64,000 bases of DNA from Vezdaea acicularis (lineage: Eukaryota): positions 1 to 64,000 of the forward strand of contig JAPEUI010000035.1 of NCBI GenBank assembly GCA_026025075.1, written 5' to 3'. Shown here in pieces: positions 1-64,000 of the stretch. The position numbers and the translations under genes were made by a program. Within the stretch, counting starts at the first letter, position 1. Each line of letters starts with the position of its first letter. The notes under the pieces were generated by a model. It had not been told where the DNA came from. It saw only the letters and a program-made list of their open reading frames with translations, and did no database searches.

Positions 1-961
1 CCCAACGTCGAGATATTTGGAGAGAAGATTCTTGAATAGGGATACCAGACTCTATTTCTGAACAGGCAACATTTAAACTTGGAGGAATTCCATCTTCCCC
101 CGCTAACAATGCTTTCCAAGCAATGTTCCGATAGTCTCCGTGTCTTCCATCTCTTGGTAACAGATTTTCATAATTTATTGGAAAGGTATTAGAGCAACTA
201 GGACTGTCTCTTCTTGGCATATGCCTATTCCAATATTGACACATTTCTTTAAATCCCAAGCCTGATTCGTCTGATAAGTTTGTTCCTGCATTGCAAGAAC
301 AAGTGGTGCTCCAGGATTTTTGCAGTCGTTCATCAATCTCATGATCCAATCCTAAAGCATCGTCTGAATTTGTTTCACTCAATGTCAAAGATTGAGTGTC
401 TGCAATATCATCGTCTCTTTCCAAGACATCAGTTGCTATACTGGAAGAGATATTTGAGCTGTCCAAAAGCTCTAAAGATTGTCTGAAAGCATCTAGCTCA
501 AGTCCGGCCTCATCAGCAACATCTAATTGGCCTTGAATAGTTGATGGTTCCTGATTTGATGCAAATGATAGATTTAGAAGTTCACTGGATTCCGAATTGA
601 CTTCATCTGAAGTAGTTGAATGATGATCTAGTAGAATATTTAAGTCAATATCGGATTCTTCATGTGCTTCTGCCGGCAAAAGAGGATGATCTGTTTCTGG
701 AATAGACTCAACATCAAGTTGGGCATCAGCAAAAAGATTGACAAGTCCATCGAAAGGCTCATTCAGTTTGCTTGCAGCATGCAAAACTGGTGAGGAAATT
801 GATGGAGCCAAAACAGCTGGAATAGATGATGACGTAGATTCTGGTAAGACGCTCAGTGATGTTGATGAATAGGACTGATTCAAGGATCTAAGTTGATAAC
901 GGTTTTGCCGCGCTTGTTGAGCCTGCAGCTTTTCTGCTTGAGTCTTTGCTTTTTGCCCCAT
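1..961 (-). CDS. Intronless hypothetical protein, 5' part only (>=320 aa, runs off the left edge)
   Basis: ATG at 961. Hand translation is open to position 2 (MGQKAKTQAEKLQAQQARQNRY...acidic/Ser-rich...WSTTCSC...EMCQYW...WKALLAGEDGIPPSL...ISRRW). Absent from the ORF track because its stop lies outside the window. Confidence 0.7.
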   Translation of the reverse strand, partial: MGQKAKTQAEKLQAQQARQNRYQLRSLNQSYSSTSLSVLPESTSSSIPAVLAPSISSPVLHAASKLNEPFDGLVNLFADAQLDVESIPETDHPLLPAEAHEESDIDLNILLDHHSTTSDEVNSESSELLNLSFASNQEPSTIQGQLDVADEAGLELDAFRQSLELLDSSNISSSIATDVLERDDDIADTQSLTLSETNSDDALGLDHEIDERLQKSWSTTCSCNAGTNLSDESGLGFKEMCQYWNRHMPRRDSPSCSNTFPINYENLLPRDGRHGDYRNIAWKALLAGEDGIPPSLNVACSEIESGIPIQESSLQISRRW

Positions 962-1309
962 GATTTTGATGGGAGACATCAAACGCTATGGCGGATGCGT
1001 TGATATTTATTAACATGGTAGGAAGGCTACCTATGGCTTGTAGTGGCGTGTCTATAATGACTAATCATAAGTAGAATAAACCATCAAGCGTGATATGAAA
1101 ACTGCCTATTCCATTTTTGTTAGGTCTAGTTTAATGGAACTAACCAATTGCTGATTGATTCAGCTTAAGCGAGATTAATACAAGCAATTTTCATACATGC
1201 GCGATTTTTTTTATCCAATGATTCAATGACACGGCAGGATATTAGAAGTTGTATGGTCGCTACCATAGATAGAGCACACTAAAAATTGAAGTGTAACCAA
1301 TGAGATGAG

Positions 1310-1377
1310 GAATAAACCGTCAAGCGCCATTAGTCCTTGACGCCAAGCAAAACGAAAGCGCGCTTGACGGTTTATTC
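1310..1377. repeat. Perfect 18-bp inverted repeat with 32-bp spacer
   Basis: GAATAAACCGTCAAGCGC at 1310-1327 and its exact reverse complement at 1360-1377. A near-copy GAATAAACCATCAAGCG lies at 1074-1090. Confidence 0.9.
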
Positions 1378-2155
1378 ATCGCTTAATAGGCTGCGTTGCA
1401 TTGGAGGCGCATACTAATGCTCGCTTATGCACAGATAACCAATTAGCATCTATGCCGTCCCTCCACTACAACCACGCCATCCCGGTATGCAACCATCTTC
1501 TAGGCCGTCTGGCTGCTGGAAGAAATTCCCATAATCCTAATCGTGTCACATCATCAATCTGCGACTGCATGACCACCCACAAGACACCACAATGCGTCAC
1601 AACTCCCTACGGGATCACTTTAGCAACGCCAAAGTGCCACGGATACCACTCAATCCTCACTGATCAAGTCGTATGTTCTAAAAAGGTGATGAACATTCGT
1701 GGAAATGAGAAGAGGGGAAGGGGGAATGTTCTATTATGGGATAGGATTCAGCAAGGCATATGGTAAGATGACAGCGGCGACTACTATCAAGCTAACACTA
1801 CGAACAATTATCATCGATTGCTCAAAAAAAACACGCCGCTTATGAGCCATTTATATTGTCCACCGCCTCGCCAATTCCACGGCTTTTATGAACGGCAAAT
1901 TATCCGTTGCGACGCAAAGTCTCTCTAACCATAACGTGCGACAACTTCCCAACTTCTGACCCCTCATTATAGCTCCACTTTTGCCTTGTGACATCTTCCG
2001 CCCGTCTCCGGTCGCAAGACATTCAACGATATCTCCGCAAAATATGGGTCACATAAAAGCCATTATAGACTCTGGATCCGCCCAGCCTTCAACGAAGCTT
2101 TGCGACCCATAAAGTGCCCCTCTGGCCATGGCATCCACCACTTTGCATCACAAAC

Positions 2156-3175
2156 ATGCTACTCAGAGCCGTCCGGCGGTCTCCTCCGTCACCTCGTGTC
2201 CTTCTCTCCAACATCTATCCAATCTTCATGGCATGTATCTTTGTGATACTGCTGATTCTGTGAGTTTAGCACTGTTGAGTAACTTGAGTATGCTGACTCT
2301 GTAGCACACTTTCTCAAATAGTTCAGCCCCTTCTTTCCATGCCCTTGGCGTATCCTTCATTGTCCTATCCGGATCCTCTAACTCGCGATGTCGTCCCAAT
2401 TCAGTGTCATTCTCATAATGATTATTGGCGGCCTCATCCGCTCTTAGATGCCCTTCGAGCAGGCTGCGTGAGTGTGGAAGCTGATGTGTGGCATATCGGT
2501 CAGGAGCTCTATGTTGGACACTCACGAGCAAGTCTGGTGCCTGCTCGCACCCTGACCAGCATGTACATCAGCCCGATACGTGAAATCTTGGAAACCATGA
2601 ATCCTAATAGATCGCTCAGCCCGGTTGGAGTTTTTGATGCAGTCCCGCTGCAGACCCTGTACCTTTTGATCGATTTTAAGACTAGGGGCTTACAGACGTG
2701 GAACCTCGTAGTTGAAGCTCTAGAGCCATTAAGAAGGCCAGACTGGCTGACTAGGTTTGATGGGACCACATTACATACTGGCCCGGTGACCTTAGTCGCG
2801 ACTGGGAATGTGCCATTCGAGAGGGTAATGGCCAATAGAACTCAACGAGACATTTTCTTCGATGCACCTCTGGCCTCTTTGGAATCGTCTGAGGACACAA
2901 ACCTCACATTCAAGTACAATACAACCAATTCAGTCTATGCGTCAGCTCCTTTGGTGCAGTCCCCGCCGCCACATATCCCAGTAGACAAAGAGTTGGAGTC
3001 AATTGTAGAGCAAATCAAAGCTGCAAATATTAGGGGTTTGAAAGCAAGGTACTGGAATACACCGCCATGGCCGATTGCCACCAGAAACGAGATTTGGACG
3101 TTATTAGTAAACGAGGGCGTTGGAGTGCTGAATGTGGACGATCTAGATGCTGTACAACGGTTCTGGGAGACATAA
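2156..3175 (+). CDS. AIM6: AIM6-family PLC-like phosphodiesterase (2 exons)
   Basis: Motifs CHSHNDYW, GCVSVEADVW and RYWNTP. ATG 2156 with intron 2260-2304 (GTGAGT...CTGAC...TAG) adds an N-terminal hydrophobic anchor in frame with ORF 2339-3175. Confidence 0.85.
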
Positions 3176-3515
3176 ACATTGCAACCTTTCTCCACCCTTC
3201 AGATTTAAAGTAGCGTGTAGAGATTAGAAAATGTCAACTTTTCCAAGGGACGAGCTATTCAAATAACCGCGCTATCCACTGCAACATGCTAATGATGATA
3301 ATACGCACGCTAACTCGATTCAACCGTGATGCAATAATGAGAGCCAATATGCCTTATGCATTTGCTGCTTCGCCGCCTTTGTGCTCTGTTCAAGAACATC
3401 AAATACACCCTGCCCACTTTTCAAGCTTGTAGAGGATATTGTTGGTATCTACAGACTTTAAGAGTAACTCCATCCAATGCATGTAAATCAATAATGTGTG
3501 ATTGATAGGGCGTTT

Positions 3516-5224
3516 TTACAAGAATCGTAATAAGCCTTGCGCCATCCCAGGCGCAATCCCTGGGACCATGCTATAGCTATAGAGGTCGCGCTTGTTATTT
3601 GTCGAATTGTTGTTGAATTGCAGATTCCCAAGGTCGCACCAATTTTTGATGGGCTTTCAACATGTCAGCATCACACTGTAATATTAAACGTTTAGGGGGC
3701 TTACAAGACAGGACAAGTGTTTGCACCAGTTGCATTGGACGCGGTATTTGTAAAAATTGTTCAAAAGAACAATAAAGGCGATAAGAACTCCGACGAGAGC
3801 ACCAGCTCTAAGTAGCCACCAAACCCACCACAAGAGTTTTCGACCTTTGAAGAATCCAACAGGTTGCTTAGCGAACGCCTTGACGCCGTTATCATCTTGA
3901 TCGTCCGGGAGTCCACCCAAGGCTCCTGCCATGACCGGTTCGTAGGGTTTGACTACTCCAATACGCTCTCTAAGGGCCACCGGCGAATGTAAAATACAGA
4001 TTCCCATACCTAAACCCATCAAGAATCCCCCGATGTGAGAGAAATTGTCAAGCCCAGGGAGGAGACCTAGGACAAATGACAAAACCACGTCAAATCCAAT
4101 CCATGCGAGTTCGACCCAGGGCGATTCGTGTTCACGCCATCTGAAAAGAAGATCGACAAGGGTGAGGGCAAGTATGCCAAACAAGCTTCCAGATGCACCA
4201 GTAGATGCAATTCCGCTTGGAGCGAAGTTACCCCCTAGGACAAATCCAAAGATGCCGGCACTGAAATAAACGATGAAGAAGCGTAACGGCCCTATGAGCT
4301 TCTCCATATCTCGTCCAAGCGTAAGTTGTAATAACATGTTGAAGGCTATGTGGATTATTCCTGCGTGGAGGAATATTGGTACAACAAAGCGGAACCATTG
4401 ATCTGGCTGCGGCTGATCGTTGATAGACCCTCCAACTTTTGGATTTGGAACGCCTGAAAATCCGCAGAGATCAGAGAGCGTACACTGATTCGAAGGATCA
4501 TTTACGTCCGTAGTTGTTATGTTGGGGCATGGCCAATTGATAGTGGATTTGGAATCTTGTATACCAATTGTAGATCTCATACAGGGTACAAAACGTGCGC
4601 CCATGTTAATCAAGACGTATTGCGAAGGGCCAATCATTGGGTTGAAAGTCGGATGAATCTCGATTGGGGATTTAGTTAAGACCGCTAAAAATACTTAGAC
4701 TGCGTCAATGTGGGGAGTGAGTATTTCTTACAGTTTTTGACAATCTCGGCAATGAAAACAGATATTTGAATAAGGGTCAAGATGTATACAACCCATGTAA
4801 CGCGGCCGCTACCGCCAAAAAACCTCTTCATACCCTTTCTCCGAGGCGGATCGCTAACTGGGCCCGGTAGTCCATCAGCTGAATTTGTTGATAACTTCGA
4901 TGCCTGGTCGCGCAATGGTATATCATCTGCATAATGCCCATGATCGGAAGTCCTCTCTTGGTTGCCGTAATATGCAGATTCCCCCCCAAGGCTTTGTTGA
5001 CTTTCTTGGGCGACATAAGGTGAAGGGGACCTATAGCCATACTCGCTATCATCAAAAGGTGACTTAGGCGGTCTTTTCGATTCGCCCCTATTAGATCTTG
5101 TTGAGATTGTACGAGACGGTGGGGAAGGCTGAGATCGCGACGGTGTATCAAAGCTGGGGTTGAAGTCGAGGTCGTATTGCGGCCTTGTGGAGTGATTCCG
5201 CTCATAATAATCATTTGCGGCCAT
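3516..5224 (-). CDS. Rhomboid-family intramembrane serine protease (3 exons)
   Basis: QWFRF, FLHAG..H...N, catalytic GASG and NFSHIGG motifs, multiple TM segments. Introns near 4685-4731 and 3654-3704; stop TAA at 3516-3518. Confidence 0.9.
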
Positions 5225-5763
5225 CTTCACCAGACTACGGCCCTAGAGGGCAGCACAGTCACTGATTTCAGATGCGTATAATGCACAAGATGGAAGAAGT
5301 GAGGGGTTTGCTAAGGGTACTCGAGGGTCCTTCAGGCTTAGCGCGAATTGAATGCTCGAAACAGGAACGGGCCGTGCTGGGAGATGCAGGGTAGAGACCC
5401 GTATTTGAAACCGCTTCCAACCTGTTTCGAGTATTCAGTTTTCTCAAAAAGATATTGTATCGTCTAACCTGCTATAAGAGTTGGAGAATGAGAAGTAGTC
5501 TTTGATGCACTGTGTTGATTTATTTTCAAGCCTCAGTCGCTGGGAGCTAATTTAAGCCGCATTCACTCGTCAGCTCAGCTGTGCTGCGCCTGAATCGGCC
5601 CACTAAACTTGGAATACCGGATTGCACGCAGCGACAGGGGGCTGTCGAGAAGCTTGGGGGTCACTAACAAGTGTAATCCAGCTAGAGAGTATGTTTAAGT
5701 TATGAAAGCGCGAATGAGTTGGCAAAAAAATTGATGTTCGGAATCAAAAATTGCAACGTAAAT

Positions 5764-5854
5764 CGACAGAAGCAGGATTTGAACCTGCGCGGCCGAAGCC
5801 ATATGATCACGTGAAAATTCGAGTCATACCCATTAACCACTCTGGCATCCTGTC
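5764..5854 (-). tRNA. tRNA-Ser(CGA) with a 10-nt intron
   Basis: The reverse complement folds as acceptor GACAGGA/TTCTGTC, D-loop TGG, anticodon stem TATGA/TCATA with CT-CGA-A, intron 5808-5817, long variable arm GGCTTCGGCC and T-arm GCAGG-TTCAAAT-CCTGC. A T-run terminator follows. Confidence 0.93.
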
Positions 5855-5966
5855 CGTATTTTGATTAATGCCATAATGTAGTATATAATCTCAATATCCA
5901 AACCAGGCTCAAAACATTATCACATTGTCGCTTTGTTCAGCTCCAGTACGATCGTCCGCAATCGAT

Positions 5967-6464
5967 ATGTCTGGTCTTGCCACTGAATCATCGTTCCCAG
6001 ACATCACCAAAAAAATCTCCCTAGGACTCATCATAGCCTCTCCTATCCTCATTGCTCTCCCACCACGCAAATTCGACCTTTACACCATAGTTCTCAGCGG
6101 CACATTTGTGCTCTCCGCCAACCACTACATAAAGGCATCATCTGGTCGTTCAATCTTAGATCATGTTAAAGCACGAAGTCCACCACTTGATGGCTTGCCG
6201 AGTGACAGAGCACGAGAAGTGCAACGGACGTTGAGGCAGGTGAGAAGGATTGACCACTCTGCTGAAGACAGAGGCGTGTTGGACAAGCTGTGGATGGGCA
6301 ATGAGAAAGAAGGTTGGAAGGAACGAAGGATACGGGAAGAAAAAGAGAGGCTCGCGAGAGGCGATGGTTATGGCTCAATGATAATGAGTTACGTACGTGA
6401 TGTCTGGAAGGGGGAAAAAGATGGGTCGACTGGCGAAAATGATGATAGCGATGGGAAAGAGTAA
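5967..6464 (+). CDS. Conserved small fungal membrane protein of unknown function
   Basis: First ATG of ORF 5925-6464. Hydrophobic N-terminus with LPPRKFDLYT and C-terminal LWMG.E.EGWKERR...GYG motifs that I recognise from fungal hypothetical proteins. Confidence 0.7.
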   Translation: MSGLATESSFPDITKKISLGLIIASPILIALPPRKFDLYTIVLSGTFVLSANHYIKASSGRSILDHVKARSPPLDGLPSDRAREVQRTLRQVRRIDHSAEDRGVLDKLWMGNEKEGWKERRIREEKERLARGDGYGSMIMSYVRDVWKGEKDGSTGENDDSDGKE

Positions 6465-17724: not shown

Positions 17725-18280
17725 CTAAAAGCGCGTGAATGGGAGCCTGCGTCCTATCAGCTACAGGGCTACTAGGTCGCGGTCAGGTTATTCTTACCAC
17801 TTGCCCCTCATATTGATGTTTACCCAGGCTACGCCGTCCTTATCAACTTCTTTTTCAACATGAGTTGAGAACGCAATTGCACTCATGATACCGTCCCCGA
17901 ATTTCTCGTTCAGAATGGCTTTGTACGCATATCCATAGTTCTGCACGATCTCATAAAGTCTGTATATCAAAGGCTCCTTGGGAGGCATGTCGACCGTTTT
18001 TCCGCGGTCTGGAAACCCCGTCAATTGCTCATCCAACGTTCCATGGTCAATTCCGAGAATAGACGACAGTTTCCTAACATCCTCTTTTGAAGCACGCGCC
18101 TGTCCGTAGAATATAGCAGCTACCGCGACTTCTGATCTTTCCAGCTCCTTGGCAATCGCTTCAAACGTTAATTGCTTTTTCTCTTTGGCTTCGAAAAGCG
18201 TAGGTGCAATGGATCTCTGCGCCCATCAGTTTGAGGTTCGCAAGTTTTGGCTCAGGGCTCACCTCAAGAGCAGAAACCAT
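17725..18280 (-). CDS. CYN1: Cyanate hydratase (cyanase), 3 exons
   Basis: [17 protein letters not shown]...[36 protein letters not shown], and RGKW|LPFTRF-stop after splicing. Confidence 0.93.
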
Positions 18281-18690: not shown

Positions 18691-21600
18691 ATGGCAGATC
18701 ATTCTCATGGACGCAATCATGATGAGGATCTAGCCTATGGACACCTCCATAATAGCGAAGATGAGGGGAACCAGAGACAACGAGGTTTTCTTGGAGGTGC
18801 TTTCAATCGATTCAGAACCCATCATGCTGGAGATGCTGGTCAACAGCAAACTTCCCAGACCAGTAGTGCAGAAGCAATAAACAGCTCAGTATAGCTCTTC
18901 CCTACTTCACACGCAGGCTGAATCCCGACATGCGTAGTCTATAGGCAACCCTAGTATCACCCAGCAGTATCAACCTCAGCTTCAGAACCAAACAAGCCCA
19001 CCAGTGGAGCAATTGAGCGGACATTCCCAGCCAAAGGGTTCCTTTATGGATTCAATAATCGATAATGCCCACATAGCCGTTCACAAGCTTGGTTCGGAGG
19101 TGGCGCAGAAGGTATCCGATTTCGATATACATAGTCATACCCACCACGGGCTTCCTTGTGCACCAGGGCTGCATCCCAAATCAGGACATAGGTATGGCAG
19201 CTTCGCTGGACAACGGTCTGGGAATGGTGCGAAGTGGTTTGTCGATGGATGCGACTACATGTGGGCTATATCAGAAGCTTTAATGACAGCCAAGGAGTCG
19301 ATCTGGATTCTTGACTGTAAGCTCTCTTTCATCTAGAAACGGCCTTGCTTTCAAGCCTCACTAAGATACACAGGGTGGCTTACTCCAGAACTATACCTAC
19401 GTCGGCCACCTTCAAAGTTCGAGCAATATCGGCTCGATAGACTACTTCAAGCTGCAGCTCAACGCGGCGTAAAGGTCAACTGTATCGTTTACAAAGAAAT
19501 CACCCAGGCTCTGACCCGTAAGTATCTAACTCCCATACTTTCTGACTACCTTCATTCTCTGTTATCCCAATCTGCCAATCGTTTGACGTCTCTACTGTCG
19601 CGGCTTGGTCTCGCGGCAACTTTCGCGTCCTTAGAACAAGCGGAGGCCCATCACCCACTAATGGAACCGCCGCTCACAGTTTCTTCGGCCCACACAAAGC
19701 ATGCACTTGAAGCCCTACACCCAAATATAGCCGTCTTTCGCCATCCAGATCACCTCCCAGACGCAAAAGTATTCCAATCATCCTTCGTTTCCTCTCTTCA
19801 AAAGCTATCTTTGAATGCGGCGACGGCTTCAAAGCTTCCAGGCAATGCGCTCCAAGCTATCTATGGTATGAACGAAGACGTAATCCTCTACTGGGCTCAC
19901 CATGAGAAGCTTTGTCTGGTCGATGGTAAGATCGCGTTCATGGGCGGCCTTGACCTTTGTTTTGGTAGATGGGACACAAATCAGCATCCAATCGCAGACG
20001 CACATCCAGGAGATCTGCAACGAATAGTATATCCAGGACAGGACTACAATAACGCCCGTGTGATGGACTTCGTAGCTGTAGATCACCCAGACGACAACAA
20101 GCTAGATCGATCGAAGGCTTCAAGAATGGGATGGTCGGACGTATCCTTCTGCTTAAGTGGGCCGGTTGTCAACGATCTTAAGGAACATTTTGCTGATCGG
20201 TGGAACTTCATTTATAACGAGAAGTACGACGTTCGTTCCGACTCACGGTATTCACGAATCAGCATAGCCCACAGTGACATCGGCAGTATCCCTCATCAAG
20301 CTGGAGGCATTCCAGCGGAAGATCATGTATTTGCACCTCTCAATGCGATCTCCAATACTGCAGTGCAGAGTTGTGGCGACCCGACATCAGCATCTCAGAC
20401 CCAACCAGCATATGAGCCTCCGTCGGTTCGATCCGCCGAAGGCAACAACGTCCTAGCCCCTGATATGAGTACTGCGCATGCGGGGCAATCCCCTCATGGT
20501 CTTAGTGAAGTAGGCCGAGGGCGTAGTTTTGGTCATGGTGGTTTGCGGGCTGCCTTGAAAGAAAAGGCTATTTGGGGAATGGAACATGTCCAAGAAGAGA
20601 TGAGGATTCACCAAGGAGAACTTCAGCCACCACAGGGTTATCAAGGTAGCATGGCTTGCCAGATCGTGAGAAGCTGTACCAAGTGGAGTAATGGATCTCC
20701 AACAGAGGCAAGTTTAATTTCTCACATAGTCTGTGAAGTTGTCCGAAGTAATAGCAGGCCTCGCTTCACTGAAAAGTGGCCCCTCCGACAAAGCTCCTCT
20801 AAAGCTCTGCGGGGTCTGCTATTGTTAGCTAAGGCTAGAATACAGCTGAATATGCAACCCCAATCAAGGCCTGCCATTTCTCATAGTGTATACAGAAAGT
20901 TAGCAGGTAGACCTGACTGATAGTGATACTGACGTGGACCAGCATTCGATAGCAAATGCCTATATCAGTGTAATCGAACATAGTCAGCATTTCCTGTACA
21001 TAGAGAATCAGTTTTTTATAACTGCCACCTCGCAATCACAGAAACCAATCAGAAATAAGATCGGAGGGGCTCTCGTCAATAGAATCTTGAAGGCGGCCAA
21101 GGCAGGTGAAAAGTACAAAGTCATCGTCGTCATGCCATCGATTCCCGCATTCGCGGGGAACCTGAAAGATGAGAGCAGCTTAGGCACACGCGCAATTATG
21201 GAATTCCAGTATGATTCAATAAACCGAGGAGGCCACAGTATTTACGAGAGAATTGCCAAGGAAGGATTTGACCCTACAGAATATATACGCTTCTACAACC
21301 TTAGAAATTACGATCGCATCAACACCAGTCGACAAATGCAAGAGACAGAGGAGGTAAGTGGTGTGTCTTATGAGGCTGCCCGCAAAGAGCATGACGATCA
21401 AGTTGGCGCAGGATTTGGGGGCTGGGGCGAAGGCACAACTGCTGGTGTTCAAGGCCAAGGCAACCAATACCAGGCGTATCAAGCGGCCGCTGGAGAGCTC
21501 CAGAAAAAATATCCTGACACTGGGCGATGGGATAGTGTGAGCGAGTGCTACATGCTTGGGGGGGCAGATATTCGGAACGTCCCTTGGGAAAGCAGCAGTG

Positions 21601-22370
21601 GACTTGAGATTGATGCTTTCGTGAGCGAAGAACTCTATGTGCACTCGAAGGTAAGACAGCCCTATCGAAAGGTATACTACTCCAGACTAAGAGAGTAGAT
21701 CATGATCGCGGACGATCGTATCGTGATCTGTGGGTCGGCGAACTTGAACGACAGATCTCAGCTAGGGGAGCACGATTCGGAGATTGCAGTCGTTGTGGAA
21801 GACCCCGCTCCGCTTGATAGCTTCATGGATGGACGTCCTTGGAAGGCTTCGAAGTTTGCTGCGACTCTTCGCAGACAGATATTTCGGAAACACTTAGGGT
21901 TGCTACCAGCACAAGATATGCAATCTCCAGATGCTAATTTTCAACCAATTGGTGTTGATAATTTGTACGACTTGCATTCAATGGAGGATCAGGCTGTCGC
22001 AGATCCACTTTCAAACAACTTCTTAAATCTTTGGAACACTCGAGCAAAACAGAACACCGATGCTTTTGCGCGTGTATTCCATCCCGTTCCATACGACGGG
22101 GTCAAGAACTGGAAAGATTATGACGAATACTTTGGGAAATATTTTGCTATTCAAGAAAAAGATGGCAAAAAAGAGCCTGCCAAGTACGAATGGGGTCATG
22201 TAGTTAAAGAGTCATTCTCTGAGGGGGAGCAGGGCGCAAAAGAGGTAAAAGAAATACTCAGCACGGTCCACGGCTCCCTTGTCGAGATGCCGTTGTTGTT
22301 TCTTGTAGAAGAGGACATAGCGAAGGAAGGGGTGAGCTTGAATGCTTTCACAGAGCAAATCTACACATAA
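18691..22370 (+). CDS. Phospholipase D with two HKD motifs and no PX/PH domain seen (6 exons)
   Basis: HKD1 is WAHHEKLCLVDG; HKD2 is YVHSK|IMIADD...GSANLNDRS. Introns at 18889-18937, 19317-19373, 19518-19679, 20708-20942 (GC-AG) and 21651-21698. Confidence 0.93.
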
Positions 22371-22468
22371 TCCAGCGGTATGATGATACGAATTTAATTG
22401 ATACCTCTTGTGAATGATGATTAGCTTTACAAAATGCATTAATCTTGTCTCTACTGTGAAGCTCTGTT

Positions 22469-22922
22469 CTTAGTATTGTCCTAACAGTTCTAGATCCCAA
22501 CCACAACACAAGACGAGAATTTAGCGCACTTCAATGCCCTTTTCGAGATCTCGTTTGGGCCAAGGATCGAGATCGAGACTCAATAAATTGATCTAGAAGG
22601 GTCCTTGATACATGATGGGGCTCATCATGTTCAAAGGTTTGTGAGGTTTCGACACAATACTACCGAAGACAATACTAAGGAACTCCACCAAGCTCAGCCA
22701 CACCACGCGATCAGCACCCACATGCCCATTCCACAAAGGTCTCAGGTCAAGTCCATTATATCCTAAATTGTCTAGCGTAATCCTGAGTTTCAGCAACGCA
22801 GAGAGCATTGTTCCCAAACACCATAAAAAGGGACTTGCTTGACTCCGTCTCTTCTCTTCTTCTCCACCACCAACTACCTCAGATCTAATCATCCCGATCC
22901 GAAATCTTTCAAGCAATCAAAG
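22469..22922. promoter_or_regulatory. Promoter of the CaaX-peptide gene: HMG-box-like motif cluster plus TATA-like box
   Basis: GACAATACTAAG at 22668-22679 and inverted at 22469-22480; ACAATACTA 22654-22662; TTCAAAG 22630-22636; ACAAAG 22733-22738; AACAATG (reverse) 22806-22812; CATAAAA 22822-22828; ATCAAAG 22916-22922. Confidence 0.5.
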
Positions 22923-23002
22923 TAAGCTCCTGTGCTTCTCCACCTCATCTTCACTGCTTACAATCACATCAGATATTTGGGCTTAAGACCAAATCAATCA
23001 AC

Positions 23003-23154
23003 ATGCAGCCATTCACTACTATTTCCATTGCCGAGGAGGTTCCCCAGCCAGTCAACGAAGGTCCGTGTTTTCCCATAGCTTCCCAGATTCACCTCATTTA
23101 ATGACTTTTATTTCTATAGATGGCCACGGTTACGGCGGTTGTTCCATCATGTAA
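23003..23154 (+). CDS. Candidate a-factor-like (farnesylated lipopeptide) mating pheromone precursor, 30 aa: MQPFTTISIAEEVPQPVNEDGHGYGGCSIM
   Basis: Exon 23003-23060, intron 23061-23119 (GTCCGT...TAG), exon 23120-23154. Ends in CaaX (CSIM-stop). Start context TCAACATG; probable 5'UTR intron 22922-22970 (GTAAGC...CTTAC...CAG). Confidence 0.75.
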
Positions 23155-23715
23155 ATTATACCCATAGCCAAGGCCAAACTCACCTTTCGCTCATTCCTTC
23201 TCGACCTTCGAGGACGGTACTCGATTTGTCAAGACCACATCGGAGAACTTGTCCAACCATGCAAGATGGAGCGCTAGGCAGTGGGGGGGGGTGGTTTCTG
23301 TTCCAGCCTCTTGGCTTGACGGATCAGTTCATTTTCAATTCACCAGGGGGTCCGTGCGGTTTGGGAATCATACAAGGCGATCATATATCTTCCTTTCGGG
23401 CAGCCTCACTCTCAACCAGTGTCTCTGACGAATGGAGGGCCAGGGTGCGCCTTTTTCTTAAAAATCTGATTCGATTTTAAATACCGTCAGAAGGCTATGT
23501 TGTATTTATTGCACTGCCGGATGGGGAACCTTGCTAGTTCAGTCCGCGGCCATACAAGCCGAAATGACAAAACATTCATTACAAGGACTCTGAAGCACTC
23601 CGCGTTCACCGCTGACTACCATAGAGTGAGACATGCAGCAGTAAGTCCTACAGCCCCTGTGAAAGCTTAGTCTCCATCCAAAAATCCACGACGCCATGTG
23701 CCTTACCTGACCAAA

Positions 23716-25640
23716 TCAACTTATGTGCGCCTGCTCACGTGAATGTTCAACCTTCAAAAGATTTATCTCCAGTAACCGTATGTCCGAAAGCCCTGCCTGA
23801 ACACCATCCTCGCCTTCCTCCGCAGCTAAAGATCCAGCCAAGCCTTCCTTAAACACCGTGGCAACGTGATGCAGCGGTCTTAGAAACCTGTTTCCTATAT
23901 CATGCTTAGAGCTGAAAGATTGAACATCGAGCTTCTCCCGAAGCATAGTATGAGTGACCAGAAGGTAATAAAAGTTAAGCGCAGCCAAATAGAAGGGAAG
24001 GTTTGCTTTGAAGAGCATCCAGGCTTCAGCTAGCGGCTCTGGGGCTATTTGTGGGAAGAGATACGGCGCAAGCTCGTTAATAGCCACGGGCGTTCTAAAG
24101 ATTGAGTCATCGTCCTTTAGTATCTCTGTCTTCAACCATGATACAGCACTGCCTTTTAGGTTCTCGAACGGACAATTCTCAAGAGTATCGCGGATGAACA
24201 ACAAACGGACAACATCTGAGGGATGAGAATGAAGGGTTCGAGAAGTCAAGACATGGGCGTTGTATCGAAGGATTCCGGAAGGTGTATTTGCTGATAGGAG
24301 AGAGAGGTTTTGCAAATGCTGGTAGAAGACTTCGTCGCCTTCATAAGCAGGATCTCCAGGTGAGCAGGAGAAACCGATAGCTAGAACAGCGTCTATAATT
24401 GGCCCGGGTTCTCCCCCAATTGAGCCAGAGCCTCCAGCCTCTGCGCTCCCAATGAAGGTATGTGTGATAGCTGCATGATGAGGGAAGATCTGGAGGGAGG
24501 GTACCGAAAGAGAAGATCCAAAAAGCGTAGCAGACGCAATCCGAGCTACAAGGAGAAACAGCGAGCCTGTTTGGCTCAGAGGAATATCAGATGGAGAATT
24601 TGGAGGGCCCTCGTCAGAGGCTTCAATAACAGGGAGGATGATACAATCTAATAGGTCCTGGTTCGTGAGAGACAGGTCGAGTCCAAGTGCCTACGGCATG
24701 CAATTTAGCTCCACCCAATTCTCAGAAAGAGGGACCAGCATGCATCTCTCGTACTTACTACAAGCTGTCCCACAGTAGATTCTCGGGATTGAAACGCCTC
24801 ATCTTTGGCGAACCTTTGGGTGTAAGATTTCAAATTTTCCGCTTCCTTCTCATAGAGCCGCGCCGACCAGTAGAGACCGTCCGTTGATAAGATATAGTCC
24901 TCTAAGATATGGGTTGTGAATGACGCTAGGAGACGGGCTTGAAGAGCAGCTTCATTGGGCGCGGGAGCTTCATTGCCTTCCGGATCCGGCGCGTCCGAAG
25001 GGTTACTCAGAACACTGGATGATGACTGGCGATGTGGTAGGTGCGGGCGCTTTACTCCTGAGAGAGTCTTGATGAGTCGAATGACTTCGAATGTTATATC
25101 ATCCGCAGGGACAAACTTAACCGCGTCAGAGTATGTTGCGAGAACTGCGGTAAGAGACGTCGACAGGAACCGTGAAGGGTGAGCTGTGCGTATTCTTGGT
25201 TGGAGAGTAGTGAGGAGACCTATGAGTGTGAGGAACTTCGAGGTAGCCGTGGGCGTTTCGTGGTCGGCTTTCATAGCTGACGTAGATTCAGATGTATCAT
25301 CTACGGTCTTCTCTGCGATTTGAAGCTTTGTAATATTTGGCTCCTCTTCAGCATCACTACTCTCCTCAAACTTCAGATCGCGCAGTGCTTCGCAGATCTT
25401 CAAGACACACTCTCGAGGATTCCCATATTTCCCAACGATTTGAAGGCATTCTTCACTACCATGAAGTGGCAGCAGTAGGCCAATGAGGTCCCAGCCGACG
25501 GAAGAAGTGAGCTGCGGAGTGAGTAGCTTTGCGAGCTCAGGAAGAAGCTCTGGCGATATATAGGTGCTCAGGATTGTAAGCCAACTGATATCGTCCACGG
25601 CTGGAGGCACGGAAGACTTTATGGCACTAAGAGGATCCAT
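23716..25640 (-). CDS. Ybp1/YAP-binding/ALF4/glomulin-family (DUF1760) protein (2 exons)
   Basis: GWDL..LL, ECL......GNPRE.(V/I)L and TAHPSRFLSTSL motifs, and C-terminal LR..A...LT..LH.HP...R...IRDTLE.CP.ENLK..AVSWLK. One intron near 24691-24757. Confidence 0.8.
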
Positions 25641-38544: not shown

Positions 38545-41500
38545 ATGGCAGCAAGCTTCGACGAACTCATTGCATTTCTTCTTGACGAAATCGCATTGCG
38601 CGGCGAACAAGGTAAGCCTTTTCCTCTGCGTTTAGGTTTGTTTCCTGGTGGTGGTGGAATCTCTCTGAATCGATGACGGCTAATCGATTATTGGTCTCCG
38701 ATCTCTTGAGTTGAAAGTGGCGTTTAGCTGTTTTATTATTTTATTACCTCTGATAGGCGTGGCTCAAAGTTCGAACCATGCTTCTTCCAAAATTATTTCT
38801 TGAGTCTTACGTATTTTGACTGAGTCGAGGATTATTTAGGCGCTCTCATACAAGAAATTTTGACGGCCATAGATCGATTCTATGTCAAAGACATCTTTGA
38901 TCGCTCCGCGAGTGCCGTTACATCTCCCACGATCGCTGCGGAGAGGGGTCCCGTTATTGAGATAGGATCTCAAAGTACAGCTTCCCCCGTGAGAGAAAGA
39001 GCTTTCGACCAACAGCCATACTTGAGGCCTCCCCATTGTACAGTTGATCGCCACTTCAAAACTAAGGTATGGGAATGGCTTGTTGCTCATCGCGAGGTCT
39101 GGGTTGGAAAGAAGAGACAAGGCAACCGTTTGAGTTTAGAAAGGGCGTATCCCGAGTACTTCCAGGCACGCCCATCCGAGGATCTTCCAGACGGAGTCGA
39201 CAAGTTCGTGAACAGTTGCAGTCTCGACTTGCCCGGCGACGGCGAGGAATCCAGTTTGCAAAGTCAACCGAATGTCTCGCGAAATAATCAATGGAGAGTT
39301 TACACAAGCCAACATCAATACTGGCTTGCTATCACGGGTCACGGAGTCGATTGGGCAAGAATTCAGAAACTTGAGTTTGATTGTCTTTCTATGATTGCAC
39401 AGTACAGAGAGAGCGGGATCTTGCAATCGGAACTAGTCCGGTTGACCGGTCAAGATAAACGATCTGTACCCCGTCGAACTGATACGCTTTACGAAAAAGG
39501 GTATATTATGAAGAAGGCGTGGCTCGTCAGAGGATGCAAGACAAGCAAGCTCATTCTCAAAAGGTATGCAACAGGCAACGACCAATCTTCAACCATATCA
39601 GCTATAAATCAGCACAAGAGGACGGCAGATGAAGGGGAAGCCTCTCTCAACCCACTTCCGAAGGCATGGACAGCTGACGGCGTGGATGTGTCACTCATAA
39701 TCCAGAATATATTTGAGCTCCTACGGAAATACAAACTCATCACTTTTATGGACCTTAAGAGAACCCTTGTAAGTTCTCTAGAAAGAAAAACATCAAGCTT
39801 CTAATGGGGTTTCTCAGGGTCTACCAGAAACGACATGGCACCGTAAATTCTTTTCCCGAACGATTCGAAAGTTAGAGCTACTCGGCTGCGTTCGCAGGGT
39901 TATCGCCACGTCAGAGCAGATCAAGTCCCGAAAGTGGAAGTGTATGAAGCTACTTCGCGAGCCTGAAGACCATGAGTGGCGCCTTTTACGAAGCTTGGAC
40001 ACTTATATACCGGCGCGTTCACAAGGGGGATTGCCCACGACTATTGCAGGTGGTGAAGTGGACGAGGAAGAGGAAGAGCAAGATGATTTTGGATTAGGCC
40101 AGGTTCTGGAAGCTCCCCTCACACTAGCAGGGATGGTCCAGGAGGGCAATAGTCAGTTGCAAGAAGTGAGCAGACATGTCCCGCAATGGACTCCTTGGGG
40201 GGGAATTGTGCACCCGGTACAAAAGATTGTCAAAAGTTCCCAGGAAAGCGGTATTAGTACAATGGTACGTATTGATATGATCTTTCCTTTTTTGTCTTTC
40301 AGTCGAGCTAAGTATCCTTTAGGACATTCGAGATAAAGTCGTCGGCCGTTTCTACACCCGGCCTTTGGAAGGCATGCTGGAGCGTCTGACTGAAGATTGG
40401 AAAACTTCTCAGCCATCGCACATCCATCACCTTACCATAATTCGTGACATATCTCAGATCCGACGGGCGGCACATTACAGGTATTTCACGCTCAGCAGCT
40501 TCGAGCGACTGGTCAACTCGGGGGCATCATCATGGGAAGCCCTGGGTGTGAAAAGCGGCTCATCCAAAGACGAGAGAGTGCCGAAAAGTGGTCTACCGAA
40601 CCCGGTGACTGTACCAGGCGCCATGTATCATTTTGGTATTATTCCCCAAAGCAGCTTCTTTAAGGCACATGGTAAACCTACCCTGTTGGACATCATGCGC
40701 GGCACCAAAGTCGAGCAACTCTTCACGATATCCAGTGACCCGAACTTAGCGCTCAAGAGTGATGGGACCATAGGTAAATAATGTTTTTTGATTTAGTGCT
40801 CCTTGCAATACTGACATACTGTAGGCTTGGAGTGGGGCTCTCATGGACGCAAAGGTGGCCACAGAATTCAGCCAACAATATCTCAAGACGGCGGGAAAGA
40901 CGGCACTCTAAGGGCATTGGAGCCTAGCAGGGGGCGTGGAAGGCCGAAGAAAAGCGTTAATAATATCACATCTCATAAGACGAGGGATGTAATAGATGCT
41001 CAGACTCTCATCAAAGTCAACGGGAAGAAAAGAAAACTTTCTGAGTGTGATAAAGCTGAGAGGGCCAGTAAGAAGAGGAATACCAATGTCGAAACTACGA
41101 ACGCAGCAGCACCAGCGGATGTTGATATGATCAACACAAACGAGGTCCGCGAGCCTTTTCCGGTACCTTGCCGTACTTCTGGACGAAGAAGAAAAAGGAG
41201 AGTTCTCCCCGATGAGGAGAGTCTGGTGAATGATATAGAGATGCCTTCGAGCGACCCACATATAGCATTCCAGGGCAGACCCCCGTCTTTCTGTGTTATC
41301 GTCAACCCTCCTGATTATTCGAAGCCTAAAGTAAAAGGGGGCCGAAGAGGTCGCCCAAAGAAGGCTTTGATAGTAGTCATCCAATCTGAAGCCCTGAAGC
41401 GAACATCAGCGAAGAGGCCTAAGAGCTTGACTACGCCTAAAGCAAATGTGTTGGGGAAGAGGAAGCTTGAGGACTTAACACGAAACAAAACTCAAAGGAG

Positions 41501-44500
41501 TCCACGATTTACGCAGGACATCCCGAAAGAGGGGCCTTTGCTCTCTCTTGACATACAGGACCCTACACTTTCCCCTAAAAGGCGGAAAACTACTGAGCCC
41601 ATCACTACAGCAACAAGGGCATCTCAACCCCTGACATCTACGTACTCAATTCTTGTAAGTCCTGAGAGGAGTCCGCTCAATCATTCTCTACTTGGAGACC
41701 TCCGCTCGGAGAATACAGCCGATGCGAGTTTACCAAATATGCGTAAAGACTCTGTACATCAACGAAAGCTCCTTCACTTTGACTCAAGCAATCATCACCA
41801 AGCTCAACTGTTACCAGAGCCACGCTTGAGTAGATCAGAGCAGGAAGCTGATGATAGCTTGACGGTCGTCGCACAAGATCAATCCGTCCCCTCTGATACT
41901 ATGCACTCTCAGGGCATCATTGGGGGTATTGAAGATGGAGCTGACAATTTGGAAGATGGCAGTATGGCAGTTGACGAAGTACGCACGTCTGCAGTGTCCC
42001 TGAGCGAGACACCCATGGAGTTAACGTCAGATTCGGGATCGACGCCTCAGCCAAAAATGAAAAGAAGTACGAAGCTCATCCCTCCAAGAATAGCGCATAC
42101 TGCGCTACGTGGTGGCACTGTCTCGTTTCAGAGAAAGAAAGTTGTGCTTGACCTGATGAGAAAGCATGGCGGCGCATTTCCTGGAGATAGAGAGATGTTT
42201 CTAGCCTGGAAAGATGAAACTCTCAAACAGTATCCTGATGTTGGGACACCTGACTATAGGACCTACAAAGCTGTGGAGAAGAGTCTGGTTGATACTGCTC
42301 AAATCAAGCGCCTTAAGTTTTCCTTCACGACCAGAGCTGGTATTCCTCTGACAAGGACGATCCTTACATTTTCAGAGCTTGGACCTTCAGACCCCCCCGT
42401 CAGATCTATGGAGGCAAAAATCATACAAGCTGATGGAGCCGAAACGGCTGTCATTGGGGTCGAGAAAGTAAAGGGGGCTCCTAAGTCTGTGATAGATCAA
42501 GAACTCGACCAAAGGGTGACGCTACATATCGATTCGGTACCCGGAAGGCGCACTGTAGCCATAGAGGAAGCGATTATTCGTGAAGAGCAGAGAAGGGTCA
42601 AAAGATCGAGGAAGTTGAAGGAGCAAGAATATCGAAAGCAGCTCAAAGCAGAAAAACGAGCTCAGAGGCAAGATATATTGGCTAGCAGCAAGCGGAAGTT
42701 TCATGAGTACGTTTTGACTGAGGGAGAGAAGGAGCGAATAACAAAATCCATTCAAGAAGTTTCAGAGCAACATGAACTGCAGAACAGCTCTACTTCACAA
42801 GGATCTAATCGAGTTGCCCAACTTCACGGCTTACTGAACTCCCGATCTGTGCCTTCAGAAATTTCTCTAGGTGATCTCAATACAATGTTTCCCAGGTCGG
42901 GAGCACTCTCAGTGTCGTCCTTGCTTAATCAAAGATCAGAACTTAGGCATGGATTGGGCCCCAAACACAACAAGCATAAGGCACAGCCGCTAGTGGACTC
43001 ATTGTTTGCACCGTTGCTGACCTTGCATGAGACATCTGGAACTTTTGGTACTTACTTTCGGAACAATGTCAACATGGCCCAGGCCAGATGCAAATTGGCT
43101 AGAGGGAAAATCATTTGGAAGCGAAACGCTCAGTCGTTGCTGAGCATAATGTATGAGCCACTAGTCTTGTTGCACACTGTTTCGGGAACGTTTGGTACTC
43201 ATCCTCAAAGAGTCGACAGCGCGGAACGTATCAAACTTAAATTACGTCGCACAGCCAGTGTTAGCAAAAGTGAACATCAGACATTATCAGAGTCCATGGT
43301 CAAGCCAGCTATTGTCTTTCAGGTCACATCCGGGACCTTTGGCACATACTTCCAAAACGGATTGGAGATTGTCAATAAGTATAGAGCTGCTCAACGGCCT
43401 CAATATATCTTGACCAGCAGTAAGCCGGGTAGTACAATCTATCGCGAGCAGAGGCCTTTAGTACCGCTTGCTCCCAAGCTAACACTATCTCCCCGCTCGG
43501 ATATGCAAGCTTCCGCCGGGACCTTTGATTTCCTCACAACTAGTGCTAATATTGGTAACGGGGCAGGAAGCCTAAGTCGAGCGATGACTAGACCTTATTT
43601 AGCTTCGTCTTCGACCCTACGTGGACCTGGAAGACCTCCATCACTATTTCCTAAAAGGATTTTGGCAAGCCAGATCTTCAAGACTCGCAAGCTTACCTCC
43701 CGAGAACATGCGATCGTTGTGGAGCCATCTAAAGCATCTAAGGAACCCAAACAGAAGAGCTCAACAATACTTTACTCAAATGGAAAGCCGGTTGCTCACA
43801 AACTGCTACAACGTAGAACTCGTGGAGCTTTGAGTTTTCCCGATCTACCTGAAGAAGCTATCGAAGACGTGATCATTGCGGTAGTAGTCATCAGAACCGT
43901 CATTGGGGGACTTGACAAGAATATCGATTGGGTGATCATTTCCCGATTGTTCCCGAATTACGGGATCAACGTCATAGAGACTAGGTGGGCAAGGATTGCT
44001 CAGAAATATAAGACGCGGTTGGAAATGCTCTATGACGATTTTCAAGATATATTTCTGGAAGCTTATCAGTCTAATGTCATCCCCCCCCTTGACTTCGATA
44101 ACCTCCTCGCATACGACTGGAGATGGCTAGTTAACTGGGCCCGAGAGCACCTTGAAGCGGGAAATAGGTCCGATGTCGTCGTGCTACCAGACAGCCGACA
44201 CAAATTTGATAGCCTTTTCAATCTCGAGAAGCAAAAAGATCGTTGCAAAGATTGGAAAGATGACTGCCATGATTCTTCGGCCGCACATTTGAGACGTATG
44301 CGAGTATCCAGCAAGGTTTCATTCGCGAAACCTCTGAATGCGGAGAAGATAATAGAATCCAATGAATCTGAATTGCTCATTGCAAGGTCATGGATTCGTG
44401 CCAACGTAATCACGGAAACAGAGAAGTACGATAGTAGCGCTGCAAAGCAGAAGCTCTTTGCTTTAAAGGAATCCATTCTCGACACTGCTCTTCATCAGCT

Positions 44501-45236
44501 CCTAAAAGACAATGTTATAGTGCATAGCAATAGGGGTCGGGACATACCAGGTCGAAATTACGATATTACCGAAAGGGTCTTGAAATCCTTCAACCGGGAG
44601 TTTACGACATCGCTTATGAGCAGGACTGCAGCGTTTAAGAACAAACTTGACGTAGACTTCTCGAATCGTGGTTTCTCGACGTATTCTTACTATGCGGAAG
44701 ACCCGGAAACTCTCGCTGTCATAAATCTTGTGACTAGTGGACGTATCGCTCTTGATGCCGTAAACGCCCCAATTAGACCGATGGGACTTACGAAAGATTA
44801 CCGTTCTCGGGGAATGGATAAAGGCCTTCTTCATTTTGGTATGGAATTGCGGCCTACATCATTCTGGGTATACGGAAACCCTCTCCCACATTTAGCTCCA
44901 CCGCCGGGCAAGCATCTAGGGGAAAAGCTTCAACCGATACCCATCTGGTATGATATTCACGGCAATCTGATATCGGGCATATGGGGGCAGGTTTTGACAG
45001 CCATTTTATACACGGTATCTATGCGATCAGGTGTTTTGAGCGAGGAGTTAGCCAGGATCTTTAAGCCTAGCTTGGACCTGTGGGAAATTGAGCTTTGCTT
45101 AGCGTGGTGCAAAGAAACTGGTGTGGTGCAACATTCTGGCGTTGGGGGCTGGAATACAACAGGCTGGTGGTGGTGTTTGGGTTGGGACGAACAGTGGTTG
45201 CAAGGTGGTGCTCTTTCCTCCAGGAAACGGGTATGA
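38545..45236 (+). CDS. TFC3: TFIIIC largest, B-block-binding subunit (Tfc3/Sfc3/tau138), 5 exons
   Basis: MAASFDELIAFLLDEIALRGEQG exon, B-block winged-helix region (GILQSELVRLTGQDKRSVPRRTD.L), AT-hook-like GRP motifs, and C-terminal ..IGGL...IDW, RSWIRAN, PGRNYDIT, PIWYDIHG. Confidence 0.88.
42984..43424 (+). repeat. Three tandem 49-aa (147-nt) repeats with SGTFGT core within TFC3
   Basis: Equivalent codons at 43002, 43149 and 43296 give an exact 147-nt period. Confidence 0.85.
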
Positions 45237-62500: not shown

Positions 62501-63795
62501 ACCAAAAGCCTTTGGAGTTGCTCTGCCGCCCTTCCCTCGTCTCCGTCGTTGGCATCCAAAGCCTTCTCGCACAGTTCTGAGGCGTAGCCCGCTGCAGCTA
62601 GACGTTTGACGATGCTCTCTTTCTTGAGATTGCCGCTCGCCATGCTGATTCCAGCCGTGTATCCCTCAGGCAAACTCCAAGGCGGCAGATCGTCTTCGGG
62701 GACATGGATGAGTAACCACTCCAGCGTCTCTTCCCGGTCTTTGCATTCAGCCACAGCTTCCTCGACGTGACTTTTCCGGAATCCAAGACTCGAAAACTCT
62801 TTGACAATCTGAAGCTTTCTTTCGTTGGTGATCTGAACAGCATGAGGGTTCCAAACGGCATTCTTCCTGATCAGGCTCTCCATCTGCGTCCTTATTCTCT
62901 TGCCCAGATCGATCTTCGGAACCTTTTCCCAGCCCCTCATAGGGTTTCCGGCGCGATGCTGTCCATCCGAGGCCCCTTGAAGACCCGTCGACGCAAGTAG
63001 CCCACCAGGTCGCGTCGCCTGCTTTGCCGCCAACTTCTCCTTCTCCGCTCTCTTCTTCGCCATCGCAATCTTCGCCTCCTCTCTCTCGCGCAGCGTAGCA
63101 AACGGGTCCGCGGCATACATCCACGCTTTCCCTTCCTTCGCATCCTCCTTCTTCAGCTCCTCGAACTCGCCTTTCCACAAGCCGCGGTGGTTGGGGGGAA
63201 GCATCAGTTGGAGGTTGCGCATACTGCAGACGCGAAAGAGCGCATATGTAGCAGCAAAATTTCGCGCTTCTACCGCTGTGGGTTGGACTGCGAGACCCTT
63301 GTGTGATGGCGGGAGCTTGAAGGGAGGAATATTCGTGACTTCCTTCGTCTTAGGGTTTATGCATTTCAGCGTGACCATCGACGAGTAGCCTTCGGCATCT
63401 TTCCTCTATAAAAGCGCCCCGTCAGCCATACGAACATGACCTGTAGTCATATATTAGATGCTCACCATGCTGTATTCCGGTTTCTCCCATCTCTGCTTCT
63501 GGCAGTGCTCCGAGAGCAGCGCCGTAGGAAGTTTGCCCGTCCAAGACTGCCCCGCCACCACCTGCTTATTCGTTGGTTTCTTGGGCGTTGCATCTTCTAA
63601 GGCAGCCTGGGGCACTTGGGGGCCGACACGCGCGTCTTTGGCCTTGTCAGCGTTGTCAATGGCGATTTCGGCTTTCGTTCTCGTCTTCGAGTTGGAGAAG
63701 ACAATGAAGCTATCGTCTTCATCCGCCGGCTTGGGGGGGACGGGCTTGGTCTTGCCACCGCCACTGCCTCGGCTGGGATGCTTGCTCTTGGCCAT
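59510..63795 (-). CDS. DEAH-box RNA helicase, DHX57/Ylr419w/Ucp12-like with UBA and RWD regions (3 exons)
   Basis: GETGSGKST, CTQPRRISA, DEVH, MSAT, TNVAETSITI, QRRGRAGR and WLLIHVPEDDLP. Confidence 0.93.
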
Positions 63796-64000
63796 CTTCG
63801 GAGAGCGGCTCCTCTCTGTTTCCCCAAAGTCTCGATCCGCCGGTCCATGTAGATCTCGAGGTGGGGGCGTGGCGTATTTAATACTTGATCGAGAAAAGAA
63901 AATGTCAAGTGCCTCGCGAATCTCTAGGATGCATCTCGAGAACTCGCCACCATCATCATAGGTTAGGATTAACCCCACTACGGTGGTGAATCAGCCACAA

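Follow-up and report, generated by a model that had tools for sequence, protein, structure and literature searches.

The 64,000-nucleotide (nt) stretch analyzed here, referred to as the window, comprises positions 1 to 64,000 of contig JAPEUI010000035.1 from the Vezdaea acicularis assembly GCA_026025075.1. On its plus strand, in the gap between a phospholipase D (PLD) gene and a Ybp2/glomulin-like gene, lies a two-exon micro-gene whose predicted product ends in a CaaX motif, and which is considered here as a candidate gene for an a-factor-like mating pheromone precursor. Coding exon 1 (23003..23060, 58 nt) opens with an ATG in the context CAAC-ATG, comprises 19 codons and base 1 of codon 20, and would encode an N-terminal leader beginning MQPFTTIS. 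A phase-1 GT-AG intron of 59 nt follows (23061..23119; GTCCGT...TAATGAC...TATAG), and coding exon 2 (23120..23154, 35 nt including the TAA stop) holds the probable mature region GHGYGGC and the CaaX tail SIM. Removal of the intron gives a 30-amino-acid (aa) peptide that ends CSIM-stop. By visual inspection, the 19-residue leader contains no long hydrophobic core.

The first-pass annotation had proposed this splice junction and the CSIM-ending joined product, and both were confirmed by re-reading the sequence. Its further statement that the unspliced frame has no CaaX holds for the frame opened by ATG 23003, which reaches a stop after 32 codons. It does not hold for the frame of a second ATG at 23101: the intron, which is not a multiple of three and carries in-frame stops, also holds this in-frame ATG, and from it an unspliced 17-aa open reading frame (ORF) runs to the same CSIM end. 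Only the spliced model joins the window's first ATG to the CaaX.

The TATA-like box, the pyrimidine-rich leader and the start context described in the first-pass annotation are all present in the sequence. The box, CATAAAAA (22822..22829, plus strand), stands at -181 from the ATG, and the CT-rich leader (22835..22921) probably contains the transcription start region and the first part of the 5' untranslated region (UTR). Between this leader and the ATG, a putative 5'UTR intron of 49 nt (22922..22970; GTAAGC...CAG) can be read from its GT and AG ends, and its removal would bring the box to -132.

Relatives of the locus were fetched from metagenome contigs with the last PLD exon as the query, which gave five loci (L001 to L005); the PLD search of viral contigs and genome contigs returned no further relative. 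L001, the closest relative (68% identity), reaches just 446 nt past PLD, short of the micro-gene position. L002 and L003, two distant relatives, keep the order PLD (plus strand) to Ybp2 (minus strand) and hold a two-exon CaaX micro-gene between the two, on the plus strand. In L002 the ATG is at 5559, exon 1 runs to 5598, the intron occupies 5599-5667 (69 nt, GTATGT...TACTAAG...ACAG), and exon 2 extends to the TAA at 5699, for a product of 23 aa. In L003 the corresponding positions are ATG 6038, exon 1 to 6071, intron 6072-6122 (51 nt, GTAAGT...TACTAAC...CAG) and exon 2 to the TAA at 6154, for a product of 21 aa. The exon 1 products are MSPAQIQNSAVVK in L002 and MEFQTTAVVVK in L003, and the exon 2 products end GAGCVVM and GGGCVVM, respectively, compared with YGGCSIM in the window. 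In all three loci the CaaX stands directly before the stop (CSIM-TAA in the window, CVVM-TAA in L002 and L003), and the intron is in phase 1, just ahead of a short Gly-rich stretch that precedes the Cys. A TATAAAT box is found at -129 in L002 and at -118/-120 in L003, each with a CT-rich leader. The absence of a syntenic CaaX-ending ORF from relatives had been named beforehand as an outcome that would speak against the gene; L002 and L003 carry one at the same place and on the same strand, so that a syntenic micro-gene is present in two of the three informative relative taxa.

The third of these taxa is represented by L004 and L005, two near-identical loci in which PLD is present and no Ybp2 gene lies downstream, so that synteny is lost; their ORFs downstream of PLD matched no Pfam family. 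A purine-rich, (GAAGGA)n-like low-complexity tract was also noted downstream of PLD in both (5560-5660 in L004). The relatives bear on the window's untranslated regions as well. L002 and L003 show nothing equivalent to the putative 5'UTR intron, their leaders being without any GT, and the one observation in favor of this intron is that the TATA-to-ATG distance after its removal (132 nt) comes near those of the relatives (129 and 118-120 nt). At the other end, a TAAAT..CATA element right after the stop is common to the window, L002 and L003, and a conserved block in the two relatives reaches about 225 nt past the stop, from which a 3'UTR extending over 23155..23400 is predicted in the window.

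The frequency with which such loci arise by chance was estimated by scanning both strands for micro-ORFs that encode 15-60 aa and end in CaaX, with a single intron of 45-100 nt (GTNNGT...YAG) or none. In the strict scan of the full 64-kb window, this locus was the only one detected. In 60 block-shuffled windows the average was 1.37 such loci per 64 kb, an intron being needed for 0.23 of them, and the single-window observation is therefore not beyond chance. With the shuffle-derived rate of 1.07e-5 per nt-strand, the joint expectation of a same-strand candidate in all three syntenic intervals is approximately 8e-6, and it is only through this recurrence in relatives that the locus exceeds chance.

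The pattern of conservation was examined between L002 and L003. Their PLD C-terminal residues are 88.5% shared, and only 46% of third codon positions are identical; the PLD synonymous sites being near saturation, neutral DNA between the two loci should be scrambled. (The window PLD shares 62-63% of its residues with either.) The strongest intergenic match between them nevertheless covers the micro-gene (L002 5398-5924 against L003 5889-6359), spanning from just before the TATA box, through the coding region, to the end of the 3' block described above. Within it, exon 2 is the most conserved piece (84% identity, 27/32 nt; z 4.9 against shuffles), followed by the first 60 nt of the 3'UTR (72%), the leader (67%; z 4.0) and exon 1 (58%; z 1.8), with the intron last (55%). 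Some of the exon 2 differences are of synonymous type (GGC/GGT and GTT/GTC). A weak alignment also joins the window leader at 22850-22910 to L002 5462-5524 (71% identity, E 0.003). Judged from these alignments, the pattern is one of a conserved C-terminus and a variable N-terminus, as expected of a coding unit with a functional C-terminal peptide.

Upstream of the TATA-like box, the window carries an HMG-box-type site, AACAATG (22806..22812, minus strand), 197 nt upstream of the ATG, a candidate site for a mating-type HMG factor. All three promoters have AACAAT[GA] between -197 and -309 (once in the window, twice each in L002 and L003), with five occurrences observed and 0.82 expected from the whole-sequence frequency. 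The core of a Ste12-type pheromone response element, TGAAAC (22787..22792, minus strand, at -216), which is weak evidence, is found in two of the three promoters, the other being that of L003 (at -219, as the full TGAAACA); it is absent from L002. These motifs were chosen after looking at the sequence; with that limit, they are suggestive of control by mating-type HMG and Ste12-type factors. In the tail of L001 after PLD, two AACAAT-type sites (1393-1399 and 1470-1476), one per strand, were seen as in the micro-gene promoters elsewhere.

In the window, the micro-gene sits in a gap of 1,345 nt between the ends of the convergent PLD gene (18938..22370, plus strand, ending ...QIYT-stop at 22370) and the Ybp2/glomulin-like gene (23716..25640, minus strand; PF08568, E 1e-52 and 8e-26), which is followed by a POT1-like gene. 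No Rfam match was obtained for 22300-23800, and the long ORFs overlapping the micro-gene interval matched no Pfam family, so that nothing else accounts for the interval. Directly upstream of PLD and divergent from it lies a cyanase (cyanate hydratase) gene (17794..18225, minus strand; PF02560, E 8.5e-30). As reported by Wilson et al. 2021, the a-factor gene directly adjoins cyanate hydratase in N. crassa, in 22 Colletotrichum species and in two Verticillium species, and EBP2 forms the other flank of the Sordariomycete a-factor gene. By our estimate, which assumes a genome of tens of megabases, a random locus would fall within about 5 kb of one particular gene with a probability of the order of 1e-4 to 1e-3; the proximity of cyanase, being improbable by chance, is taken as support for orthology with the Sordariomycete a-factor gene. 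This one shared neighbor is what supports the orthology. The upstream flanks of L002 and L003 are too short to reach a cyanase position.

The PLD gene itself appears as separate ORFs because a 48-nt intron with an in-frame stop (21651-21698, plus strand; GTAAGA...CTAAG...TAG) interrupts it, splitting the second HKD motif (HSK | IMIADD). Among its homologues, an 827-aa PLD of Chaenotheca gracillima (P0147) is labelled 'Cyanate hydratase' by its source, yet only PLD domains were found in it; the label may reflect an adjacency of PLD and cyanase, or a merged gene model, in that species. Elsewhere in the window, a DUF6581 protein (40827-45233, plus strand) was read as a 1,369-aa ORF from its first ATG. 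A 99%-identical protein of 1,469 aa (P0001) is colinear with the gene from 40827, and the true start therefore probably lies upstream of that ATG; the one other match to the DUF6581 protein was at 24% identity.

Conservation, architecture, neighborhood and likeness to known a-factors together lead us to regard the locus as most likely a genuine and previously unannotated gene for an a-factor-like (lipopeptide) pheromone precursor. Precursors of this kind are usually 20-45 aa long and in any case far below 100 aa, and a 21-30-aa product with a terminal CaaX is characteristic of them; they lack an N-terminal secretion signal, and their expression generally depends on mating type or sexual stage. 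The syntenic two-exon CaaX micro-genes and the cyanase neighbor thus lend support to the mating pheromone proposed in the first-pass annotation. Several observations weigh against this identification. In the window, cyanase is two genes from the micro-gene rather than adjacent, PLD standing between, and a scan of 66 window ORFs gave no EBP2. Peptide similarity of the window to L002 and L003 is low outside G-G-C-x-[IV]-M. In L004 and L005 no CaaX micro-gene was detected within 4 kb even under relaxed intron rules (a '...GKCRFM-stop' found in both was rejected, being without a start or gene-like context), and the recurrence amounts effectively to two lineages because L002 and L003, the sole informative carriers, are kin. 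The HMG motif was picked post hoc from a consensus. At the level of splicing, the window combines an unusual donor (GTCCGT, with C at +3) with a weak branch site. The L002 and L003 introns are stop-free multiples of three, so that even without their removal the ORFs, of 46 and 38 aa, keep the CVVM end, and splicing in these two loci is therefore putative.

The weak donor and the frame-preserving introns, together with the in-frame ATG 23101 of the window, would be explained if the gene were real and simply unspliced, with products of 46 aa in L002, 38 aa in L003 and 17 aa in the window, where the ORF from 23003 would then be an upstream ORF. The 46-aa ORF of L002, when searched against representative proteins, matched only the product of its own contig (P0243, 100%). 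The unspliced gene is nonetheless quite unlikely, since L002 and L003 have canonical GTATGT/GTAAGT donors, TACTAAG/TACTAAC branch sites and YAG acceptors at matching position and phase, and the intron, whose translation is unrelated between these two, is poorly conserved where both its flanks are conserved. In the window, moreover, an upstream ORF of 32 codons with a good start context would hamper the use of ATG 23101, and it is only under the spliced model that all three loci show one consistent architecture. Other introns of this genome are also short (48-58 nt) with non-consensus donors (GTAAGA and GTAACT, the latter in a helicase intron of about 58 nt, GTAACT...CTAAC...TAG); the use of such short introns with imperfect donors elsewhere favors splicing at the window locus. 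From these sequence signals we infer that the micro-gene is spliced. Spliced or not, the C-terminal product is identical, and the frame-preserving, stop-free introns of L002 and L003 and the in-intron ATG of the window may protect pheromone output when the intron is retained, or may be coincidence.

Two further explanations were considered. That the ORF arose by chance, the conserved block being a non-coding element such as a non-coding RNA, or 3'UTR or terminator sequence shared by the converging PLD and Ybp2 genes, would agree with the roughly 1.4 micro-ORFs expected in any single window. It is highly improbable given the three same-strand syntenic occurrences and their joint expectation, the TATA box and leader of each locus, and a conservation that peaks on exon 2, Cys, CaaX tail and stop codon included, where changes of the synonymous type occur; the lack of an Rfam match likewise argues against a non-coding element. 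PLD, too, ends at a conserved C-terminus, ...YT-stop, as its named homologues do. For this reason, and because the micro-gene has its own TATA box, the micro-ORF was also ruled out as a 3' exon of PLD. More weight is due to a conserved prenylated micropeptide with a role other than mating, for example a membrane-anchored regulator or another signaling peptide, although we consider this unlikely. The conservation and the architecture point to a functional CaaX micro-gene and say nothing on mating, and a CaaX end is not exclusive to a-factor, several small CaaX proteins being present per genome (Wilson et al. 2023). The CVVM and CSIM ends, the Gly-rich stretch before the Cys and the leader, however, resemble published a-factors, the cyanase linkage matches the a-factor locus, and HMG-type sites lie upstream. 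No class of non-pheromone fungal CaaX proteins 21-30 aa long is known; a G-gamma subunit was rejected as much longer.

If the micro-gene encodes an a-factor-like pheromone precursor, its maturation can be outlined from the pathway of yeast and Neurospora-type a-factors. The Cys of CSIM in the 30-aa precursor would be farnesylated, the SIM tripeptide would then be trimmed and the new C-terminus carboxymethylated, and the leader encoded by exon 1 would be cut off. The resulting short Gly-rich farnesyl-peptide, ending ...GYGGC, would be exported by a Ste6-type ABC transporter, and cells of the opposite mating type would sense it through a Ste3-type receptor. By analogy with the nine-residue a-factor repeats of Verticillium and Huntiella, the mature peptide is probably roughly 7-9 residues long. 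Transcription would probably be driven by an HMG-box mating-type factor via the upstream AACAAT sites.

The placement of the host was examined with two window proteins. The best named matches of a DHX29/ucp12-type helicase ORF (59788-63990, minus strand) were from Thelocarpon impressellum and Lasallia pustulata (67%, the highest identity to any named helicase) and from Xylona heveae (66%), and those of PLD from Sclerophora amabilis (75%), Xylona (71%) and Lasallia (70%). Among the best 120 matches of the helicase and of PLD, neither set contained a Sordariomycete or a Eurotiomycete. A helicase tree with 38 rows placed the window protein with Vezdaea aestivalis and a 71%-identical protein (Shimodaira–Hasegawa-like approximate likelihood ratio test, SH-aLRT, 100), and this Vezdaea group fell outside the Leotiomycete, Dothideomycete and core Lecanoromycete groups; the tree is of a single gene with long branches, and Eurotiomycetes and Sordariomycetes are absent from it as they were not among the matches. 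L002 and L003 are nearest to Lasallia among the named PLDs available (57-59%). On these protein comparisons the host is an ascomycete and not a Sordariomycete, with lichen-forming lineages as its nearest named relatives, and the micro-gene belongs to poorly sampled, probably lichen-related ascomycete lineages.

According to Wilson et al. 2023, no a-class lipopeptide pheromone gene was known until then from filamentous ascomycetes outside the Sordariomycetes; they proposed a Leotiomycete candidate. The motifs GYGGCSIM, GGCSIM and HGYGGC were not found in the literature searched, and among the papers listed for a-factor or pheromone together with lichen or Lecanoromycetes, none concerned an a-factor gene of lichen fungi. 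Useful features of the locus are the intron-split frame, and the PLD-Ybp2 interval and cyanase proximity as search keys. ORF-based scans miss the gene because its frame of 20-30 codons is split by an intron. We tentatively raise the possibility that the cyanase-linked CaaX micro-gene represents the ancestral a-factor locus of the Pezizomycotina, kept since before the Sordariomycetes split from the lichen-forming and allied lineages, and invisible elsewhere as the frame is intron-split ahead of the mature peptide. If this were true, searching the few genes around cyanase, PLD or Ybp2 for a spliced CaaX micro-ORF would be a rule for recovering the missing a-class pheromones of classes in which none has been found, those of lichen fungi included, and the Cys-rich Leotiomycete candidate would need re-examination. 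The locus offers a concrete candidate in a lineage kin to lichen-forming fungi, in which mating is hard to study in the laboratory. The sexual biology of lichen fungi cannot be studied in culture, and such a peptide would make mating type, receptor specificity and species barriers experimentally approachable.

The likeness of the window, L002 and L003 peptides to known pheromones was assessed by eye against the published a-factors in the S2 file of Wilson et al. 2023. With the Saccharomycotina a-factors (MFA1/MFA2), which are CaaX-terminated precursors of 30-38 aa, the window product shares this general design, and its leader MQPFTTIS comes near MQPITTVS of S. bayanus a-factor 1; the processing pathway assumed above is the one worked out for the yeast a-factor family. 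It differs in the mature region, which is hydrophobic in yeasts (...IIKGVFWDPAC) and Gly-rich here (...GHGYGGC), and in the CaaX, which is of the CVIA type in yeasts. Yeast a-factor genes are not known to have an intron.

Basidiomycete pheromone precursors are likewise short and CaaX-terminated, and some of their genes are split by introns. These genes adjoin Ste3-type receptor genes in the pheromone/receptor (P/R) mating locus; here, by contrast, a scan of 66 ORFs from the 64-kb window gave no STE3-family match, and the host is an ascomycete. The 'basidiomycete-like' sequence pattern noted in the first-pass annotation was not upheld: at its N-terminus the peptide looks like yeast a-factor leaders, and at its C-terminus like the a-factors of Verticillium and Neurospora.

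Among the Pezizomycotina, the putative a-factor of Leotiomycetes (the Botrytis cinerea BCIN_13g03330 family) comprises Cys-rich proteins of 45-64 aa with a nearly invariant end, ...C-x-E-C-D-G-x-x-CCCIPIPC-[TV]-VM (PMC10569646, file S10). It is comparable in being a small CaaX protein, conserved across a class and usually unannotated, with a GY motif near the C-terminus. The Cys-rich C-terminal block is, by eye, absent from the window, L002 and L003 peptides, which therefore belong to a different family; the Leotiomycete family was also seen to be unlike the Sordariomycete a-factors. A pheromone of the a-factor type, PpgB, reportedly occurs in Aspergillus fumigatus (Krappmann et al. 2025, Curr Biol 35:2414), and would be a like case of an a-factor-like pheromone in a non-Sordariomycete member of the Pezizomycotina, long 'missing'.

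From the Sordariomycete a-factor genes the present locus differs in its host, which lies outside that class, and in its arrangement, with PLD between cyanase and the micro-gene and a Ybp2-like gene rather than EBP2 downstream. Tandem repeats of the kind seen in the Verticillium and Huntiella a-factors are absent, and the phase-1 intron that divides the coding region here may be a further difference. The peptides themselves are close in several respects. The a-factors of Neurospora, Podospora and Sordaria end ...NFNGYCVVM (S2 file, Wilson et al. 2023), and CVVM is also the end of the L002 and L003 products. In Verticillium dahliae the repeat unit ends ...GHSGCSIM (same file), and in the window CSIM is likewise preceded by residues rich in Gly and His. 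Common to both sets is a Gly-rich or GY stretch ahead of the Cys, the window having GY near its Cys, and the precursors are similarly short (30 aa in the window and 21-30 aa over the three loci, compared with 21-24 aa in Sordariales), with a short S/T/P-rich leader that starts M-x-P or M-S-P. As in the Sordariomycetes, a cyanase gene is found in the immediate neighborhood.

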